DNA of 36,641 nt from a virus (IMGVR_UViG_2877285697_000003:1-36641); one strand, 5' to 3'; numbered from the stretch's first letter, positions 2,124-26,675 are shown. Notes: generated by a model not told the origin, from the letters alone. Numbers and translations: made by a program.

Positions 2124-2195
2124 TGAAGTGGCACACTGAATTTGGCCACCTGAACAGAGGTGATATGCTCACCTCAGAACAACACAGGTGCTCCA

Positions 2196-3364
<1,169 letters not shown>

Positions 3365-3566
3365 CCACTTCACAGTCCTCAATCGCTGGTTCCGTGACGG
3401 AAGGGGGCGTCGTGTTCACGTTATACGCTGGGAGCCTGAAACACAGCGGGTTATTTATCTGCGTGATGGTTATCCATATGAATGTTTCAGCCCGTTGTGG
3501 TTGTTCAGGCGTGATTTTGTGGAGTGTGAAGCGCCGCCGGAATGACGGCACGGTATATACGAAAAA

Positions 3567-3926
3567 TTACGTCGCCTTGCCCAGCGTAAAATCAAAGTGG
3601 ATGTCGTCATACGGGAATGACGTTCCGCGCTCGCTTTTTTCCAGTAAACCGTTGCTGATGAGTGCGGTCACGTCAGTATGCACGCTTTTTACATCACGTC
3701 CAACCAGGGCTGCAATTTTTCGGATGGACATTTCTCCGGCACCAGTCATTGCCATCAGAATGTCCATGCGTTTTGGTGTCAGTACCTTATGCATCATTTG
3801 CCAGTCAGGAAATGAAATAACGTTTTCTCTGGTTGCTTTTGCTCCGGTAGCTGCTTCCTGGAACGCAGACAGCACATCAGCCGTGAAATTATCCATTGAC
3901 TCGATTCGGATTGTTACGGTTCTCAT
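3567..3926 (-). CDS. Winged-helix HTH DNA-binding protein (about 119 aa from internal ATG; ORF track gives 151 aa)
   Basis: Helix-turn-helix-like segment ..EMSIRKIAALVGRDVKSVHTDVTALISNGLLEKSERG..; ATG at 3926 is 1 nt after the stop of the upstream 95-aa ORF (TGAcATG on the minus strand), suggesting a two-gene operon. Confidence 0.55.
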   Translation of the reverse strand: MRTVTIRIESMDNFTADVLSAFQEAATGAKATRENVISFPDWQMMHKVLTPKRMDILMAMTGAGEMSIRKIAALVGRDVKSVHTDVTALISNGLLEKSERGTSFPYDDIHFDFTLGKAT

Positions 3927-3927
3927 G

Positions 3928-4215
3928 TCAGATACCTCTGCGGATGGATTTAACGTCAGCCAGAAAATCAGCGAGCAGTTGTTCAATGGTGACAAAGCTG
4001 GTGCTGACTTCCTGACTACCAATGTGTTTGTGATCGCCTTTACCCCGTTCGTTGTCGTAACGCATCACACACATGCCATCAACGACATAAGCCATGCTGT
4101 ATTTGTAGTTGTGCTGGCTACCCAATACAGCAGGCTCCACTTCCCATATGCGGATTCGTATGTATTCAGATTCACCGAGATGACGGATGAACTGTTTATA
4201 CAGTCTGGATGGCAT
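3928..4215 (-). CDS. Hypothetical 95-aa protein, upstream partner of the HTH gene
   Basis: Complete ORF, stop codon 1 nt before the downstream HTH gene start; no family recognised by eye. Confidence 0.5.
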   Translation of the reverse strand: MPSRLYKQFIRHLGESEYIRIRIWEVEPAVLGSQHNYKYSMAYVVDGMCVMRYDNERGKGDHKHIGSQEVSTSFVTIEQLLADFLADVKSIRRGI

Positions 4216-4383
4216 TTAAAGCTTCCTCTGGTTCTTGTTGTAAACAATAACAACAAGGCTTCGCGTTGTCCACAGCTACAACATTTTGATATTGATTCTG
4301 CAAGTCCGGGACGTTACACTGTTCCGGCACCTTATAAAACGGGTGCCGGGATTTGCACCCCGGAATTGATCAAGGCGATATAC

Positions 4384-4405
4384 GACGCGCCAGCGTCTTT
4401 TTTAT
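4384..4405 (+). terminator. Hairpin plus T-run (GACGCGCCAGCGTC TTTTTTAT) inside the divergent intergenic region
   Basis: GC-rich inverted repeat followed by a 6-T run on the + strand, about 165 bp upstream of the Rha-like gene start; could be an attenuator or small-RNA terminator. Confidence 0.35.
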
Positions 4406-4569
4406 CGTCCACGCTCACGCACGCCAGAATTATGGTGGGCTGGGCAGGGGAGCCGAAAGGCTCGCCGGTTTCCTTGATCGCCGGTAGTGCAAACCCTGTT
4501 CAGTCCGCCACCAGCGAGATTTGCACCTCCGGTGGTGGAAGTATTTCACCGATCAAGGAGGCTGCCATT

Positions 4570-5301
4570 ATGGCTACGATCCCAGTTTCCCCATTCCTCA
4601 AAATCGAAGTCGTCAACGGTAAGGCCGTTACTACATCTCTTTTCGGATATCTCAAACTGTTGCGCCTTGCTGGTGTTCCGGGTTATATTTCTCGCGTTGC
4701 TGTAAATCCAGCAACCGGGCTTCGCATCCCGAAACATCACACAGGGCTGACACGCCATAAGCGTGTTTTTTTGTCTACGTACGTCTATTCAATGGCGGCT
4801 CAGATGGGAGCTTCTTCGGAAGCGCCGGTTTTCCCTTGTGTGTCCGGTAATGCGAATCCTGTCTGGGCTGCCACCAATCATGGTTTCGCATCCGTGGGTG
4901 GTAGCTGTAAAGCACACACACAAGGGGCTGTCACCATGACTACCACCACTACTCACCCATTCCTCAAAATCGAAGTCGTCAACGGCAAGGCCGTTATTTT
5001 CTCTTTGCATGTGGCCTGCTACTTTAAGCGCATGCACCAGAACATCGTCGACAAAATCGAGTATCTGAACTGCTCGCGCGAATTTTTTACCCGCAATTTC
5101 ATACCGGGTACTTACCACATCTATGACGACTCTCTGCGTGGTTATTACATCACCCTTGATGGTCTGATGATGCTTCAGCTTGGGTTAAGTCTGCGCACAA
5201 TGCGGTACTACGAGAGTTGCATTGAAGCGTTCCATGAGGCTGAAACCAGCCTGAATCATACCGCTTTCCGTCGTAATCAATGGGAGGCGCGTCATGTGTA
5301 A
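4570..5301 (+). CDS. Rha-family-like phage regulatory protein (C-terminal half Rha-like; alternative start at 4936)
   Basis: ATG at 4570 preceded by AAGGAGG; residues from 4936 (MTTTTTHPFLKIEVVNGKAVIFSL..YYITLDGLMMLQLGLS..IEAFHEAE) resemble Rha/antirepressor-type N-terminal domains; the motif PFLKIEVVNGKAV is encoded twice by a 39-bp direct repeat. Confidence 0.45.
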   Translation: MATIPVSPFLKIEVVNGKAVTTSLFGYLKLLRLAGVPGYISRVAVNPATGLRIPKHHTGLTRHKRVFLSTYVYSMAAQMGASSEAPVFPCVSGNANPVWAATNHGFASVGGSCKAHTQGAVTMTTTTTHPFLKIEVVNGKAVIFSLHVACYFKRMHQNIVDKIEYLNCSREFFTRNFIPGTYHIYDDSLRGYYITLDGLMMLQLGLSLRTMRYYESCIEAFHEAETSLNHTAFRRNQWEARHV

Positions 5302-5527
5302 TAACCATTATTCAGATACCACTGTCACGGTAATTAAAAACCTGATGGATGCGCTTATTGACATCTCTGTTATTGCAGACAGGGTGCATAAGCACGCCGC
5401 CACTGAAACAGAATATACCGGGGCTCTCGTTCCTCATTCACTGACTGTCATGCAAATTAGCGCCGACCAGGCGCTGGAAACAGCCAGCAAAATGCTCATG
5501 GCTGATGTGCAGGAGGTACGTCCATGA
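5294..5527 (+). CDS. Hypothetical protein (77 aa)
   Basis: ORF whose start overlaps the stop of the upstream gene and whose stop overlaps the next start (ATGA), i.e. translational coupling. Confidence 0.4.
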   Translation: MCNNHYSDTTVTVIKNLMDALIDISVIADRVHKHAATETEYTGALVPHSLTVMQISADQALETASKMLMADVQEVRP

Positions 5528-5748
5528 TTCGCCGCATCGTTAATTCTCTGTATCACCGATACAACCGTTGCCCCCGTGTGGGGCAGTGGTTTGCCACCAG
5601 CAACGGTCACGTTCTGCGGGTTTGCCTGGTCAGCACCGAAAACCAGAAAGTTGTGTGTGAATTACTGGGGCGTAGCTACACCATCAGTTACCCACTGGTG
5701 GTGTTTCAGTCCGGAAAAATGTTTAAACGCCTGGGAGGTGCTGTGTGA
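5524..5748 (+). CDS. Hypothetical protein (74 aa)
   Basis: ATGA overlap with the upstream ORF and GTGA overlap with the downstream ORF. Confidence 0.4.
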   Translation: MIRRIVNSLYHRYNRCPRVGQWFATSNGHVLRVCLVSTENQKVVCELLGRSYTISYPLVVFQSGKMFKRLGGAV

Positions 5749-6044
5749 ACTGTTTTCAGTTTGTGTGCGGAAGTGTTTTCGATAATCCGATTCAGCGCCT
5801 GATTATGTTGCGTGTTTGGATGTCGGGGTCTTCAGACGGGGAAGGTGAGAGAGTTATTGAGCACCAAGTGCTTGCCGATTTTTGTTGCTGTTCAAAACAA
5901 GCGATGTTCAGAGAAACCCTGGCCCTGGAAAGGGCGGGACATCTGCATATCCGAAAAATTGCAACGCTTACCATTGATGCAAAAGCCCGACTCCAGCCTG
6001 CCCGTGGTTACACAATTGTCATGCCGCGTAAGGAGGCTGTATGA
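5745..6044 (+). CDS. Hypothetical protein (99 aa, GTG start)
   Basis: GTG start overlapping the upstream stop; ATGA overlap with the next ORF. Confidence 0.4.
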   Translation: MNCFQFVCGSVFDNPIQRLIMLRVWMSGSSDGEGERVIEHQVLADFCCCSKQAMFRETLALERAGHLHIRKIATLTIDAKARLQPARGYTIVMPRKEAV

Positions 6045-6334
6045 GTCGTTATGCCCCCACACCGGAAGTTATGGCTATTGGTCAAATTAATATTTCCGGC
6101 AATGTCACACCGACAACCTGGTGGAAACATATCCAGCTACCCAGTGGGCGTCCGGATGCGACAGCCATTGCGCTGCTTTCAGAGATTGTTTACTGGTATC
6201 GCCCGACAGAAGTCAGGGATGAGCATACAGGGGCTTTACTGGGATATCGCAAGCGTTTTCAGGGTGACAAGCTGCAAAGAAGCTATCAGGCGTTTGCTGA
6301 GCAGTTTGGCTTTGGGAAAAGGGAAACCGCAGAT
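6041..6334 (+). pseudogene. Hypothetical gene, 3'-truncated by IS600 (stop codon supplied by the IS terminus)
   Basis: ORF runs straight into the IS600 end at 6335 (..GKRETAD then TGA from TGAGGTGTACTGG). Confidence 0.45.
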
Positions 6335-7365
6335 TGAGGTGTACTGGCAATAGCGGACACTACCATTTGTTCTTTTTTTAAGCAGCCATCTGATGGTATT
6401 TTTCCCTGAAGGCTGCCGGGGAGATATTCCCCAGACGAGAGTGACGACGCTGACGATTGTAGAAAATCTCAATGTATTCCCGTATTACTGAGATGGCTTC
6501 ATCCCGGTTATTAAAACGATAGTGGCTCAGGCTCTCATTTTTCAGCGTTCCCCAGAAGCTTTCCATCGGAGCGTTGTCGTAACAGTTACCTTTACGCGAC
6601 ATTGATGTTTTCAGACCAAACTGCTCCTGTATGACCCGGTAATCGTATGCGCAGTACTGTGAACCTCGATCAGAGTGGTGGATTAGCCCGGCAGGTGGGC
6701 GCTGGCTCCTGAGCGCCATAAACAGGGCTTTACCTGTCAGCTCTTTTGTCATGCGCTCTCCCATGGCGTAGCCGACAATTTCGCACGTATAAACATCTTT
6801 GATGCCAGCGAGGTACAACCATCCCTCCTGTGTGGCAACATACGTCAGGTCCGCCACCCAGACCTGATTTGGTGCTGTAGGAGCGAACGTCTGGTTCAGC
6901 AGATTTGGCGCAACTGGCAGATTGTGGTTCGGGTTCGTAGTCGCTCTGAACTTGCGTTTCTGCTTACAGCGTAGCCTTAGCTCCTTACGAAGACGTGCCA
7001 GTCGGTCACGACCAACGATGATGCCATTCTCTGCCAGCTCCGTCTGGAGCCGCCGGGTTCCATATGTTTCGCGAGTGCGGATATGTGCCACCTTAATCTC
7101 CAGTTTTAGCCGCTCATCACTTTGTTTTCTGTCTGAGGGTTCATGCTGTACCCAGTTGTAATAACCGCTCCTGGATACACCAAATACCTGACACATCGCT
7201 TCAATGGGAAATTGTTGTCGCCATTGTTCGATTAACGCGTATTTTTCAGCGACTCCTGTGCAAAATACGCTGTTGCTTTTTTTAATATATCTCGCTCAAG
7301 GCGAGCTTCATTTAACGCCTTACGCAGTTGCAGAATTTCAGATTCCAGTTCAGCCACCGTGCGGG
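6335..7365 (-). mobile_element. IS600 copy, 5'-truncated (about 1031 of 1264 bp; lacks IRL and first ~57 codons of orfA)
   Basis: Right terminus TGAGGTGTACTGGCAATAGCGG at 6335; identity to the complete copy (16287-17550) ends near 7365 inside orfA, where molR-like sequence begins. Confidence 0.85.
6378..7196 (-). CDS. IS600 orfB transposase (272 aa)
   Basis: Nearly identical to orfB of the complete IS600 at 16689-17507 (two substitutions); IS3-family catalytic core. Confidence 0.9.
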   Translation of the reverse strand: MCQVFGVSRSGYYNWVQHEPSDRKQSDERLKLEIKVAHIRTRETYGTRRLQTELAENGIIVGRDRLARLRKELRLRCKQKRKFRATTNPNHNLPVAPNLLNQTFAPTAPNQVWVADLTYVATQEGWLYLAGIKDVYTCEIVGYAMGERMTKELTGKALFMALRSQRPPAGLIHHSDRGSQYCAYDYRVIQEQFGLKTSMSRKGNCYDNAPMESFWGTLKNESLSHYRFNNRDEAISVIREYIEIFYNRQRRHSRLGNISPAAFREKYHQMAA

Positions 7366-8893
7366 AACGTGATCTGGCTCGCCAGTGGATTTTACAATGG
7401 CCGGAACATACGGCTAGTGCACTTATCCCTCTTGTCTTTACCAAACCCAGCGATAATAGCGAAGCCGCATTACTTGCCCTGCGTTTACTGTACGAACAGG
7501 GACATGGCGAATTGCTACAAACCGTGGCAAACCGCTGGCAGCGTACAGATGTATGGTCTGCCCTGGAGCAGTTGCTTAAACAGGGTCCAATGGACATTTA
7601 CCCGGCACGCATTCCAAAAGCCCCTGATTTCTGGCATCCGGCAATGTGGTCCAGGCCTTGACTTATCACTAATAATCAGCCTGTTACCGGTGACGCTCTG
7701 GAAATTATCGGCGAAATGCTGCGCTTTACCCAGGGGGGACGTTTTTATAGCGGGCTGGAACAACTGAAAACGTTCTGCCAGCCACAAACGCTGGCAGCTT
7801 TTGCCTGGGATCTCTTCACTGCGTGGCAACAAGCTGGTGCCCCCGCAAAAGACAACTGGGCATTTCTGGCGTTAAGTCTCTTTGGTGACGAAAGCACGGC
7901 ACGGGATCTGACGACACAGATCCTCGCCTGGCCACAAGAAGGCAAATCTGCCCGTGCTGTCAGCGGCCTGAACATCCTTACCCTGATGAATAATGATATG
8001 GCGCTGATACAGCTGCATCATATATCGCAACGGGCTAAATCCCGCCCCTTACGTGATAACGCGGCGGAATTTCTTCAGGTGGTCGCAGAAAATCGCGGGC
8101 TAAGCCAGGAAGAGCTAGCGGACAGATTAGTCCCAACCCTGGGCCTTGATGATCCGCAGGCGTTGAGTTTTGATTTTGGTCCCCGGCAGTTTACCGTTCG
8201 CTTCGATGAAAACCTCAACCCGGTTATCTTTGATCAGCAAAACGTTCGCCAGAAAAGCGTTCCCCGGTTGCGCGCCGATGACGATCAACTGAAAGCGCCC
8301 GAGGCACTGGCCCGACTAAAAGGGCTAAAAAAAGATGCTACTCAGGTGAGCAAAAACCTGCTCCCGCGTCTTGAAGCTGCCCTAGGTACCACCCGACGCT
8401 GGTCGCTGGCAGATTTTCATTCTCTGTTTGTTAATCATCCCTTTACCCGTCTGGTTACCCAGCGATTAATATGGGGGGGTTATCCGGCAAATGAACCGCG
8501 TTGTTTACTCAAAGCCTTTCGTGTGGCCGCAGAGGGGGAGTTCTGCAATGCGCAAGATGAGCCAATTGACCTGCCTGCGGACGCTCTGATTGGCATTGCC
8601 TACCCGTTAGAAATGACAGTAGAAATGCGCAGTGAATTTGCACAGCTTTTTGCCGATTACGAAATTATGCCGCCTTTTCGCCAGTTGTCGCGCCGCACGG
8701 TGCTGCTCACACCTGACGAGTCAACCAGTAACAGCCTGACTCGCTGGGAAGGTAAATCCGCTACCGTTGGGCAGCTTATGGGAATGCGATACAAAGGCTG
8801 GGAGTCAGGTTATGAGGACGCATTTGTCTATGACCTGGGTGAGTACCGGCTGGTCCTTAAGTTTTCACCCGGTTTTAACCACTACAATGTTGA
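7366..8893 (+). pseudogene. molR: molR/yehI-family (DUF4132-type) gene fragment: 5' part deleted at IS600, in-frame stop at 7659-7661, 3' end interrupted by IS1
   Basis: Two same-frame ORFs (7359-7661 and 7716-8915) separated by one stop codon; translation recalled as the large WGR/DUF4132 protein encoded next to metG in E. coli; the final codons MLPTY-stop come from the IS1 terminus. Confidence 0.6.
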
Positions 8894-10749: not shown

Positions 10750-11164
10750 CCATTACAAAGCCCATCTACTGGTGGGCTTGATAATGGCTTATACCCTACA
10801 CGGGATAACTTAACTGATATCCCTTTTAACGGATAAAGGTATTCAAGCCTGACACATCATGCGCTGTATCGTCGCTGTATTCCCGCATTAACCATGACCG
10901 TAGCCCGACGGGGAACTCCTTCTGCGCGAGTGTGCGGGAATAATCAAAAACGATGCACACCGGGTTTTTACCGCGTTTATGGTTCGCGGGTTTGTCCCTC
11001 ATGCTCGCCAGTCCTGTGCGGGGGTGGAAGAAACAGGACACTTACACTGATTCTTGTGGGTACGATGCTATTCCTTTCTGGATTATCCCGATGTCATTCA
11101 TGCAGGGCGCTGTATCAGACGTTCGTCATGGCTGTCAGGCTGACGGGTCCTCCCGGTGGGGTGG

Positions 11165-11192
11165 CCTGCCACGGGGCGGGAGCGGCGCGGAA
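11165..11192. other. Candidate cos site (cosN-like GC-rich element) upstream of terS
   Basis: ACGGGGCGGGAGCGGCGCGG resembles the phage lambda cosN neighbourhood as recalled (ACGGGGCGGCGACCTCGCGGG), lies about 170-190 bp upstream of the terS start as in lambda, and is followed by a TTCGTCAT motif and a palindrome ACTGTAAT-N8-ATTACAGT (11234-11257). Confidence 0.4.
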
Positions 11193-21440: not shown

Positions 21441-21748
21441 CAATGGGTAATGACTCCAACTTACTGATAGTGTTTTATGTTCAGATAATGCCCGATGACC
21501 TTGTCATGCAGCTCCACCGATTTTGAGAACGACAGTGACTTCCGTCCCAGCCTTGCCAGATGTTGTCTCAGATTCAGATTATGTCGCTCAATGCGCTGAG
21601 TGTAACGCTTGCTGATAACGTGCAGCTTTCCCTTCAGGCGTGATTCATACAGCGGCCAGCCATCCGTCATCCATACCACGACCTCAAAGGCCGACAGCAG
21701 GCTCAGAAGACGCTCCAGTGTGGCCAGAGTGCGTTCACCGAAGACGTG
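21441..21748 (-). mobile_element. IS1 fragment (right-end ~308 bp with the 3' part of insB), cut by IS911
   Basis: Begins with IS1 terminus GGTAATGACTCCAACTTACTGATAGTG; ORF 21461-21763 encodes the C-terminal 95 residues of InsB; homology ends exactly where IS911 starts. Confidence 0.85.
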
Positions 21749-21756
21749 TGAAGTGG

Positions 21757-22925
<1,169 letters not shown>

Positions 22926-23282
22926 TGGAGCACCTGTGTTGTTCTGAGGTGAGCATATCACCTCTGTTCAGGTGGCCAAATTCAGTGTGCCACTTCACCT
23001 CCGCAAATAACGGATGGCGTAGTTTTACACTGAGAAATGAAAGGGATTTGAAAAGAAAAAAACGCAAAAGCGGGCGAAACGATATATACAGTAAGGAAAG
23101 CACTCTATCCAACAAACCACCCACAGTTAATCGGAATAAAAGCAGAGTGCTTATGAATGATCGCACGCCCGAAGGTTAGTATTTCTGCACAGCAATTTTG
23201 CAAAAAAAGGCGATCATTCATAACTTAAACGTCTTTCAGTCACTCCGGGATTTCCCATCATCGCAGACTGAAAGACTCTGAC

Positions 23283-23357
<75 letters not shown>

Positions 23358-23360
23358 ATA

Positions 23361-23436
<76 letters not shown>

Positions 23437-23438
23437 GC

Positions 23439-23515
23439 TGGCCCACCACCGAGGACTCGAACCTCGCACCGTCAACTTAGAAGGTTGATGCTCTATCCGG
23501 ATGAGCTAGTGGTGG
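23439..23515 (-). tRNA. tRNA-Arg (anticodon UCU), atypical C1:G72 acceptor end
   Basis: 77 nt: acceptor CCACCAC/GTGGTGG, D-arm GCTC..GAGC, anticodon stem TCAAC/GTTGA with loop CTTCTAA, T-arm CGAGG TTCGAGT CCTCG, discriminator G plus CCA. Confidence 0.65.
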
Positions 23516-23516
23516 T

Positions 23517-23593
23517 TGGTGGCCCTTGCTGGACTTGAACCAGCGACCTGGCGATTATGAGTCGCTCGCTCTGACCAACTGAGCTAAAGGGCC
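23517..23593 (-). tRNA. tRNA with CAU anticodon (Ile2/Met type, ileZ-like of lambdoid phages)
   Basis: 77 nt: acceptor GGCCCTT/AAGGGCC, D-arm GCTCAGTTGGTCAGAGC, anticodon loop CTCATAA, T-loop GGTTCAAGTCC, 3' ACCA. Confidence 0.75.
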
Positions 23594-23679
23594 GGAGGCA
23601 GAATAATAACCATATGTCATCACATCTGCAAACTCATCTGACCACCAGCGTGTTTAACGTCCTGTACCGTTTTTCAGGC

Positions 23680-24369: not shown

Positions 24370-24460
24370 ATACTCTCCGGTTCGGTGATTTTTATCCCGG
24401 GCTTTCCACCAGGGACATAATGATCGCGCACAAGCCAGGGCAAAACAAACTCATGGCGCA

Positions 24461-24718
24461 TCAGCGCAGCGCCTCCTGCACCAGTTTTTCAAACTTTCCG
24501 ACTCTGGTTTCCAGCTCTGCCACACAGTCCACCAGCTCATCTACTGCTTTCTGTGCGCGATGCTTCGCCTGCATCAGTTCCCGAAGCGCGGGTACCATAT
24601 CTTTACGGATAGCGTCTTTTGTTATGCCCGTTTTTTCGAGTTGTTCAGCATGACGCAGCATTTCCTGCGCGTGTTTACGCAATTGTTCAGGGGTAAAAGT
24701 CATTGTCTGGTTGTTCAA
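24461..24718 (-). CDS. Hypothetical 85-aa coiled-coil protein
   Basis: ORF whose start overlaps the stop of the upstream helicase gene by 4 nt; helical heptad-like composition. Confidence 0.45.
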   Translation of the reverse strand: MNNQTMTFTPEQLRKHAQEMLRHAEQLEKTGITKDAIRKDMVPALRELMQAKHRAQKAVDELVDCVAELETRVGKFEKLVQEALR

Positions 24719-26106
24719 AAGAAACGCTCCATCTTACTGCTGTCAGTTCGTTTATTACTGTATCTGCGCGGATTGCCGGGCTTCATGGGAGTGGAAAGCA
24801 CCCGTGCACTTTCCTGGTCCACAGGCAGAAAATGTCCGTTATAAAAACGCCGGTAAATCGTTCCCAGAGAACCGTTACGTTGTTTCGTGATATTGATTTC
24901 TGCGATGCCCCTGGCCTGCGTATCCGGGTTGTACACTTCATCCCTGTAAAGCATCAGAATGATGTCTGCATCCGCCTCTATTTCTCCGGAATTTTTCAGG
25001 TCTGAGTTCATGGGACGTTTATTGGGTCTGGACTCCACACCGCGGGAGAGCTGGCTCAGCGCAATCAACGGAAAACCACCGGATTTTGCCAGGCCTTTAA
25101 GCCCCTTTGAGATTTCACCCACGGCAAGGTCATGACGCCCCGTGGTTCGGGTTTTTATCAGCCCGAGATAATCAACCACCACCAGCGCCGTTTCCGGATA
25201 TTTAATCAGGTGGTGTTTCGTTGTTGCGCATATCTCATCAATGGCCAGGTTCGCCTGGTCCACCATCCAGATATTGCGCCCGGTCATCCGCCCCACCCCT
25301 TGTGAGAAACGCGCCCAGTCTTCATCTTCAAAGTGAGCCACAGATTTCAGGCGTGATACTGGCATCCCTCCAGCCGCAGACACCATACGTTCACCAATCT
25401 GGATGTTCGCCATCTCCATGGTGAACAGAAGCACACCATGCCCCTGCTCAGTCACCTTGTCGATGATGTCCAGCGCAAGTTCGGTTTTCCCCATCGAAGG
25501 ACGGGCGGCAATGAATACCAGGTCTCCGGGCTCCATACCGCCTGTTTTTGCGTCCAGTTCATCAATACCGGTCATCAACGTCCTGGATTTCTCCAGCCCC
25601 TGATTCCGGCATTCAACACGCTCAACCACTTCCGGAAGCACATCATCAATATGTACCGGCTGAATGACGCCCTTTCCTGTCGACAGTGTGACCATCATGT
25701 TCTGCGCATCCTTCAGGGCATCTTCAGCTGCTTCACAGGTATGCGCATCACGTAATTTCTGCAGCGCCTCATTCAGTGTTTTTTCTGCATCGCGCAGTGC
25801 GGCATTGCGCCGCAACGCTGCAACATAGTGCTCCAGTGAAGACTTCACCCAGGTTTTACGCCCGGTATCAGTAATCACCGGGGCAAGTTCCGGCATCTCA
25901 TTACACAACAGCACGGGGTCAATCACTCCTGAAACACGGGCCTGTCTGCAGATGCCTGTATAGATATCCTGATACGCTCGTACAGAAAAAACGTCCGCTG
26001 GCAGTGTGGCCAGAATATCCATCACTTCAGGATCTGCTCCGCGCAGAAAGAACGCGCCGATGACAGCGCCTTCAAGGTCATCGTTACGCCATACTGGAGT
26101 TGTCAT
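24715..26106 (-). CDS. DnaB-family replicative DNA helicase (phage-encoded)
   Basis: 463-aa translation with Walker A (..ARPSMGKTELALD..) and RecA-like C-terminal domain; ATGA overlap with the upstream DnaC-like gene. Confidence 0.85.
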   Translation of the reverse strand: MTTPVWRNDDLEGAVIGAFFLRGADPEVMDILATLPADVFSVRAYQDIYTGICRQARVSGVIDPVLLCNEMPELAPVITDTGRKTWVKSSLEHYVAALRRNAALRDAEKTLNEALQKLRDAHTCEAAEDALKDAQNMMVTLSTGKGVIQPVHIDDVLPEVVERVECRNQGLEKSRTLMTGIDELDAKTGGMEPGDLVFIAARPSMGKTELALDIIDKVTEQGHGVLLFTMEMANIQIGERMVSAAGGMPVSRLKSVAHFEDEDWARFSQGVGRMTGRNIWMVDQANLAIDEICATTKHHLIKYPETALVVVDYLGLIKTRTTGRHDLAVGEISKGLKGLAKSGGFPLIALSQLSRGVESRPNKRPMNSDLKNSGEIEADADIILMLYRDEVYNPDTQARGIAEINITKQRNGSLGTIYRRFYNGHFLPVDQESARVLSTPMKPGNPRRYSNKRTDSSKMERFF

Positions 26107-26564
26107 GCAGCCACACCTCTGATACGAGAACGGTAACTGGGCCAGTTAAACGACAACCAGTTGCGTCCCCCGTCTGTGATCCTGTCGGCAATTCGGGGAC
26201 TGATGAACGCCCACAACTCTTCCGGTGAGAGGTTACTGATCAGAATGGTGGGCAAGATACTTTCGTACCTGGCGTTGATAATTTCCTGCAAAATAGCCAT
26301 TTCAGCCGCGCTGCCAAACTGAACGCCAACTTCGTCGATGATCAGCAAATCCATTGACGCATAACGCTCAATAACTTCATCCGCTGTTTTTTCGCTGTCA
26401 TTCCGCCAGCAATTTTTCACAGCACGGGTAAGGCGCATCACGTCGGTGATCTCCACACTGGCCAGATAGTTACGGATGATGTGTTTTGCCATAGCCACAG
26501 CCAGATGATTTTTTCCGGTACCACAACTGCCGGTCATAACAAGACTGGTACCGTTCTCCAGCAT
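26103..26564 (-). pseudogene. DnaC/IstB-like AAA+ helicase loader, 5'-truncated
   Basis: ORF starts directly at the Walker A region (..LVMTGSCGTGKNHLAVAMA.. DLLIIDEVG..) with no N-terminal domain; truncation abuts the IS10-like element. Confidence 0.6.
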
Positions 26565-26675
26565 ATCTGGCCAGTTCTCCGCATAGCGGCGACAGGCCGC
26601 AAGATTTCTGGCTGCGTCAGGATTAACCTCCAGATAATTATCAAACTCGCAGTCCCGAAAACGCAGGGCAATTCC

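Follow-up and report, generated by a model that had tools for sequence, protein, structure and literature searches.

Layout of the gene pair and its setting in the prophage remnant

The DNA analyzed here, referred to as the window, is a stretch of 36,641 nucleotides from a virus (IMGVR_UViG_2877285697_000003), in which two small genes lie in tandem on the minus strand. The upstream gene, tumE (3928-4215, minus strand), encodes a 95-aa putative toxin of the TumE/DUF6516 family, and the downstream gene, a tumA-like partner (3567-3926, minus strand), encodes a 119-aa winged-helix protein of the HVO_A0114 family that is a putative antitoxin and autorepressor. Reading of the window sequence placed the TGA stop codon of tumE at 3930-3928, a single spacer base c at 3927 and the ATG of the partner at 3926-3924, giving the minus-strand junction TGAcATG (3924-3930). 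The one-nucleotide spacing between two minus-strand genes, which had been noted in a preliminary description of this DNA, was thus confirmed by the open reading frames (ORFs) 3928-4215 and 3567-3926.

A mechanical ORF list also offered a 151-aa version of the partner with a TTG start at 4022 (3567-4022). RefSeq starts the gene at the ATG at 3926 (a 360-nt CDS), and this start also fits the homologue alignment. A Shine-Dalgarno-like GAGGA (4228-4224) precedes tumE, while the corresponding AGAGG of the partner (3939-3935) lies within the 3' end of tumE, a placement that suggests translational coupling from tumE to tumA across the junction. In relatives, the two genes most often overlap by 4 or 20 nt or lie 1-3 nt apart.

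The module resides in a prophage fragment of 2,961 bp (3374-6334) that is 99.9% identical by blastn to the corresponding part of an intact E. coli prophage (L001), and that is flanked by IS911 (2124-3380) and IS600 (6335-7366). It is the sole piece contiguous with that prophage around the module; further pieces resembling it are found at 10861-11192, 23282-23594 (inverted) and 24457-26675 (inverted). A second, inverted IS911 copy (21740-22997) and more IS600 copies are also present in the window. A phage-type tRNA cluster, Gly-Thr-Arg-Met/CAT (23283-23593, minus strand), corresponds to the one in the intact prophage, and toward the right end of the window lie CssrB, an sRNA specific to Shigella, and an IS009 RNA element (35105-35284 and 36041-36244, both plus strand). 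CssrB, the number of IS600 and IS911 copies and the occurrence of the exact 119-aa partner sequence in Shigella dysenteriae suggest that the window derives from Shigella.

The cassette had been described as integrase-proximal, and its position was read as one where mobile elements carry cargo. The position itself stands, as the integrase gene (75-1361) does lie to the left of the module. The blastn comparison found no counterpart of this integrase in the intact prophage, and the integrase is assigned to a different element, so that the pair was rejected as integrase-linked cargo. The argument from integrase proximity fails because the adjacency was made by IS elements, which bracket the fragment.

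On the other side, tumE is divergent from a series of RNA genes that scored above the Rfam gathering scores. An isrK sRNA (4327-4403, plus strand) is followed by a C4 antisense RNA (4428-4515, plus strand), and second copies of both follow at 4696-4771 and 4788-4878 (plus strand). The C4 antisense RNA is a P1/P4-type immunity RNA, and each C4 gene comes after an isrK gene. Further along the same strand, about 440 bp from the module, lies an Ash/Rha-like ORF (4657-5301), whose Phage_pRha match of 28.0 bits is slightly below the cut-off of 29.9. The earlier statement that the cassette is divergent from a Rha-like gene needs to be corrected to include the intervening isrK and C4 RNA genes. The same adjacency of tumE and C4 was found in the intact E. 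coli prophage and in two other loci (L082 and L083), representing three element types, and was not found in non-mobile contexts.

The annotation of this region holds several overlapping calls. The RefSeq CDSs named 'ash family protein' (about 4180-4530, a pseudogene, and 4657-5301) overlap the isrK/C4 RNA genes, and the Pfam Phage_ASH match covers residues 36-98 of the ORF 4657-5301 (nt 4762-4950), across the second C4 gene. Some of the 'Ash' reading frame may hence represent an RNA gene in translation. Additionally, a 647-codon frame (3358-5301, plus strand) is open antisense to tumA and tumE, through the isrK/C4 genes and into the Ash/Rha-like ORF. This frame was rejected as a gene, since it is antisense to a conserved gene pair and crosses four Rfam-supported RNA genes; its 3' end alone resembles a genuine gene.

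Family assignment and predicted structure of the two proteins

The upstream protein had been considered impossible to assign to a family by eye, a view that did not survive database comparison. Searches with profile hidden Markov models (HMMs), which the preliminary description had proposed as a check, placed both proteins above the Pfam gathering scores. The 95-aa protein scored 56.5 bits with TumE (PF20126, DUF6516; gathering score 23.4; E 2.8e-15), over profile positions 6-80 of 81, and PF20126 was present in all 107 homologue clusters. It also belongs to phrog_16135 in PHROGs (E 2.6e-58), a family of unknown function there, and near-identical E. coli copies carry the RefSeq label "toxin-antitoxin system TumE family protein". 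No model in NCBIfam release 20 matched the protein, though RefSeq applies the TumE name. A sequence search of the PDB with TumE returned nothing significant, the top match being a cupin with an E-value of 0.65.

In the AlphaFold2 (AF2) model (pLDDT 94.3), the 95-aa protein has six beta-strands and, after them, a single long helix at the C-terminus. Members of the subfamily are 93-98 aa long and share an almost invariant hairpin, represented here by the motif YDNERGKGDHKH at residues 53-64. The residues that are invariant across the subfamily are K38, Y39, G60, D61, H62, H64, F74, L80 and F84, and all of them are kept in the window. The hairpin D61-H62-x-H64, together with K38 and Y39, is likely to form an active or binding site, and this conservation pattern would be compatible with a catalytic role.

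For the partner, the full-length match to HVO_A0114 (PF25212) scored 87.2 bits against a cut-off of 27.6 (E 6.5e-25). PHROGs places it in phrog_11214, again a family of unknown function, and its RefSeq name is "HVO_A0114 family putative DNA-binding protein". In its AF2 model, the partner has a three-helix winged helix-turn-helix (wHTH) and a wing, with the wHTH at residues of about 42-105 and the recognition helix at 79-91, preceded by an N-terminal beta-alpha-beta segment (residues 1-40). A PDB sequence search gave marginal matches to ArsR and response-regulator wHTH domains alone. The Pfam match and the structural model agree with the previous identification of the partner as a DNA-binding winged helix.

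A relationship of the partner to the Csa3/CasR regulators was examined and rejected. The wHTH domains are alike (E about 1e-5 to 1e-7), but the match to TIGR01884 reached 24.8 bits against a cut-off of 60.2 and was confined to profile positions 126-194, which correspond to the wHTH part, and the partner has no CARF domain. The examined parts of the window contained no recognisable CRISPR-cas genes.

The TumE-TumA superfamily (DUF6516) was defined by Durairaj et al. (Nature 2023, PMC10584680), who reported that six gammaproteobacterial TumE toxins arrested the growth of E. coli and that their upstream neighbours fully neutralised them. The Allochromatium TumE lowered 35S-methionine incorporation, and RNase activity was proposed for TumE in that study, without demonstration. 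The toxin was described there as "predominantly downstream" of its partner, and the family fold as a seven-strand antiparallel sheet with two helices and no confident PDB match. The phrase "diverse unrelated antitoxins" in the same paper anticipates the toxin-first, winged-helix architecture seen here. In the literature searched, TumE is described in the 2023 Nature paper and its preprint alone; besides these, DUF6516 receives a passing mention in a Halococcus genome paper, and nothing was found for HVO_A0114. Both proteins are already named in RefSeq, and the toxin family is published and in Pfam.

The window pair shares with TumE-TumA a toxin family defined by the Pfam HMM, a mobile and patchy distribution, and a tightly coupled bicistron whose second component is predicted to bind DNA. 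In both cases, the toxin is a small protein of putative alpha+beta fold with no solved-structure relative. The differences lie in architecture. In the validated subcluster 1a the antitoxin gene is upstream, whereas the toxin gene comes first in the window and in every one of the 78 paired loci; the antitoxin-first order is a feature of the tested subcluster and of most clusters, not of the whole superfamily. As antitoxins, subcluster 1a has RelB-like or small hypothetical proteins (about 70-105 aa) in place of the 119-aa HVO_A0114 winged helix, and its toxins are an estimated 110-135 aa (from synthetic-gene lengths) compared with 95 aa here. The six strands and one helix predicted for the window protein also differ from the seven strands and two helices of the family, a comparison made with the published description.

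Predicted promoter and operators, and the recognition helix

The divergent region between tumE and isrK is 111 bp long and contains two putative operators, which were located by repeat, promoter and palindrome scans. Operator O1 (4234-4257, minus strand) is a perfect palindrome, CTTGTTGT-tattgttt-ACAACAAG, with the core GTTGT-N8-ACAAC at 4237-4254. Operator O2 (4265-4282, minus strand), GTTGT-agctgtgg-ACAAC, lies upstream of O1, and the centres of the two sites are 28 bp apart (27-29). The predicted -10 hexamer TATTGT (4249-4244, with an upstream TG) falls within the spacer of O1, and the predicted -35 hexamer TGGACA (4272-4267) overlaps the right half of O2; these hexamers constitute the sole promoter-like site on the minus strand in the region upstream of tumE. 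A start site predicted from them, near 4237, would yield a 5' leader of about 22 nt (4216-4236, minus strand) that holds the Shine-Dalgarno-like GAGGA of tumE.

The same type of site as O1 occurs at the same position in relatives. With strict criteria, the two-site layout was found in 37 of 81 loci compared to 0.06% of shuffles, and with relaxed criteria in 51 of 81 compared to 0.5%. The half-sites fall into three classes, GTTGT/ACAAC, GATGT/ACATC and ATGGC/GCCAT, and residue 79 of the partner tracks them (V with GTTGT, F with GATGT and Y with ATGGC), a correspondence whose statistics are weakened by shared ancestry within the classes. Residue 79 is the first residue of the recognition helix in the AF2 model, and the rule held in three of three loci outside those from which it was derived. 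Altogether, these sequence patterns indicate that the winged-helix protein very probably binds sites of the O1/O2 type and represses its own operon. The overlap of operators and promoter, a feature of type II toxin-antitoxin (TA) autoregulation, is present in silico.

A tumE leader with a Shine-Dalgarno motif is also found in enterobacterial relatives, while most others appear leaderless. In 49 of the 81 loci there is no Shine-Dalgarno-like motif at tumE, and between 5 and 9 nt separate the end of a -10-like hexamer from the start codon. Loci lacking the motif carry a consensus TTGACA in the upstream operator (range L008-L081, e.g., L035 and L037). These arrangements suggest that tumE mRNAs outside the Enterobacteriaceae are leaderless, and gene callers appear to mis-start tumE genes of this type: in locus L087 (about 5925-6003), the 85-aa call skips an in-frame ATG abutting the operator.

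The operators also bear on whether the pair is toxic at all. It could instead consist of a transcription factor and a small cofactor that control mobile-element genes, for example the isrK/C4-antirepressor genes, and the predicted operators in the divergent tumE-isrK region and the adjacency of tumE to C4 in three element types would both fit such a regulator. Most members of the group, though, are far from phage genes or C4 RNA and sit beside unrelated chromosomal genes, and in these chromosomal loci the operators lie on the module's own promoter and start codon, which means that the conserved target is the module itself. Toxicity of TumE-family proteins in six of six tests (PMC10584680) likewise counts against a non-toxic pair, and the near-invariant motif of charged and histidine residues looks more like an active site than like the surface of a passive cofactor. 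We therefore regard a purely regulatory pair as highly improbable.

The regulatory region is also relevant to the condition of the cassette in the window. With just 2,961 bp of contiguous prophage around the module, the other pieces scattered and inverted, and a TumE that is two residues off each of its two nearest database clusters, the pair might be an inert leftover, its ORFs intact but carried as silent or inactive passengers of a prophage shattered by IS elements. The ORFs, Shine-Dalgarno motifs, promoter hexamers and operators are nevertheless unchanged relative to the intact E. coli prophage. The two-residue differences in TumE are substitutions at variable positions that leave every invariant residue in place, and the exact sequence of the 119-aa protein (100% identity) is found in a cluster from Shigella dysenteriae and E. 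coli. Addiction, moreover, predicts that a TA pair will stay intact while the element around it decays. With these observations taken together, we consider it quite improbable that the cassette is inert here.

Distribution of the module and the toxin-antitoxin interpretation

A scan of one genome per species yielded at least 590 loci with relatives, and a profile built from 32 homologues retrieved 1,975 representative clusters at E <=0.001. In 78 of the 80 loci fetched, the gene directly 3' of tumE, in the same orientation, encodes an HVO_A0114 homologue, and the two loci without a paired partner are contig ends. The hosts span Alpha-, Beta- and Gammaproteobacteria, Planctomycetes, Vicinamibacterales, Methylomirabilota and Desulfobulbia. 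No recurrent partner was apparent in the flanks, whose 126 ORFs represent 112 different Pfam families. Among mobile elements, the module was found in a lambdoid prophage, in the nin region of an Stx1c phage and in a P4-like Salmonella island; relatives are also present on 74 plasmids, the weak plasmid matches belonging to the same TumE subfamily. Chromosomal contexts of relatives include a position between dnaB and alr and another near ftsZ.

Within E. coli, the region is present at >=97% identity in nine of 5,426 complete genomes, in seven of them at >=99%. Comparison of the window with the Stx1c-phage copy gave dN/dS values of 0.074 for tumE and 0.071 for the partner, with dS of about 1.4-1.6, and both genes are under purifying selection. 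The pair is an autonomous, horizontally mobile two-gene unit with a patchy distribution.

The Stx1c prophage of E. coli FHI_NMBU_11 carries its copy of the module (locus L082, 6035-6683; 77.5% DNA identity) in the nin region, in antisense orientation to the phage genes and some 4.4 kb upstream of stxA1c. Elsewhere, some copies of the toxin gene are damaged. In locus L007 (3968-4288), the stop codon of TumE is lost and the protein carries the changes D61N and H64P, with the winged-helix gene intact; in L039 (4067-4231), where the winged-helix gene is again intact, a truncated TumE of 54 aa is left; and the TumE of P0107 is without the DNERGK segment. A damaged toxin beside an intact partner fits the decay of a toxin in a TA system, with assembly errors in metagenome-assembled genomes a possible source of the L007, L039 and P0107 variants.

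The genomic contexts were also weighed with respect to phage defence. The main role of the pair could be anti-phage defence or superinfection exclusion (abortive infection, Abi) as a prophage moron, a role compatible with a TA mechanism: infection would free TumE, and translation would stop before the invader's cycle is completed. Abi activity is common among type II TA systems. In elements of Enterobacteriaceae the module occupies accessory sites, such as that between the immunity and replication regions of the lambdoid prophage, the antisense position in the nin region of the Stx1c phage and the P4-like island, and the C4 antisense-RNA immunity region adjoins it in all three enterobacterial contexts.

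Several results speak against such a role. PADLOC-DB v2 held no match for the 95-aa protein, and for the partner it gave weak, generic matches to the wHTH region of CasR, Csa3 and CARF models (E 1e-7 and weaker). Immediate neighbours in 63 diverse loci were overwhelmingly housekeeping or metabolic genes, and no recurring defence family appeared among the 25 most frequent neighbour families listed. Moreover, the module was present in just one of 50,697 phage genome records (phiSTEC1589-Stx1c), and no link of TumE or DUF6516 to phage defence was found in the literature searched. Defence as the main function is, in our assessment, unlikely. The characterization of the cassette as a defence or repressor module accordingly holds in one half, since the partner is very probably a repressor of its own operon; the PADLOC search that had been recommended as a check lent the defence half no support.

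The reading that we favor, with a probability of roughly 0.8 as a whole and less for each inferred step, is that the pair is an autoregulated, toxin-first type II TA operon of the TumE superfamily. The suggestion of a type II TA pair in the preliminary description gained from the Pfam TumE match, from the strict conservation of the pair as a mobile unit and from operators of the type used in autoregulation. Toxicity, neutralisation and a translation target are properties that the window pair would be expected to have by analogy with its family. MqsR-MqsA, HigB-HigA and HicA-HicB offer a parallel in which the toxin gene comes first and the antitoxin gene second. The antitoxins MqsA, HigA and HicB have a domain of the helix-turn-helix type and act in autorepression via palindromes over the -35 and -10 elements, and the toxins MqsR, HigB and HicA target translation. 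The window pair resembles these systems in gene order and operator placement.

In the mechanism that we propose for the TA operon, a single sigma-70 promoter, with the -35 and -10 hexamers given above, would drive tumE and then the winged-helix gene, the latter being translated by coupling across TGAcATG. A dimer of the 119-aa protein would bind both GTTGT-N8-ACAAC palindromes over the -35 and -10 elements and switch the operon off, while the part of the protein outside the wHTH, probably the N-terminal beta-alpha-beta segment, may keep TumE inactive. Upon depletion of the antitoxin, free TumE would block protein synthesis and cause growth arrest.

A more far-reaching proposal is that the enterobacterial cassette is wired to the C4/isrK immunity system via the shared divergent control region, so that arrest is coupled to antirepressor control and serves superinfection exclusion or Abi, and that TumE is an enzyme of a new fold whose DHKH hairpin carries out an undescribed, translation-targeting chemistry. 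We regard this as a long shot. If it were true, occupancy by the antitoxin or release of TumE would couple translation arrest to antirepressor control.

The assignment of the module to the known TumE family gives an identity to an "unknown" pair in a Shigella/E. coli prophage remnant. A TA specialist would find no surprise in this, and its practical value is modest. The toxin-first order with an HVO_A0114 partner is the arrangement in the largest recognisable TumE subgroup around the window sequence. For the HVO_A0114 family, the operators and the V/F/Y rule at residue 79 amount to a falsifiable model of DNA recognition, and for TumE, the YDNERGKGDHKH hairpin suggests residues that would be worth mutating in the search for its activity.
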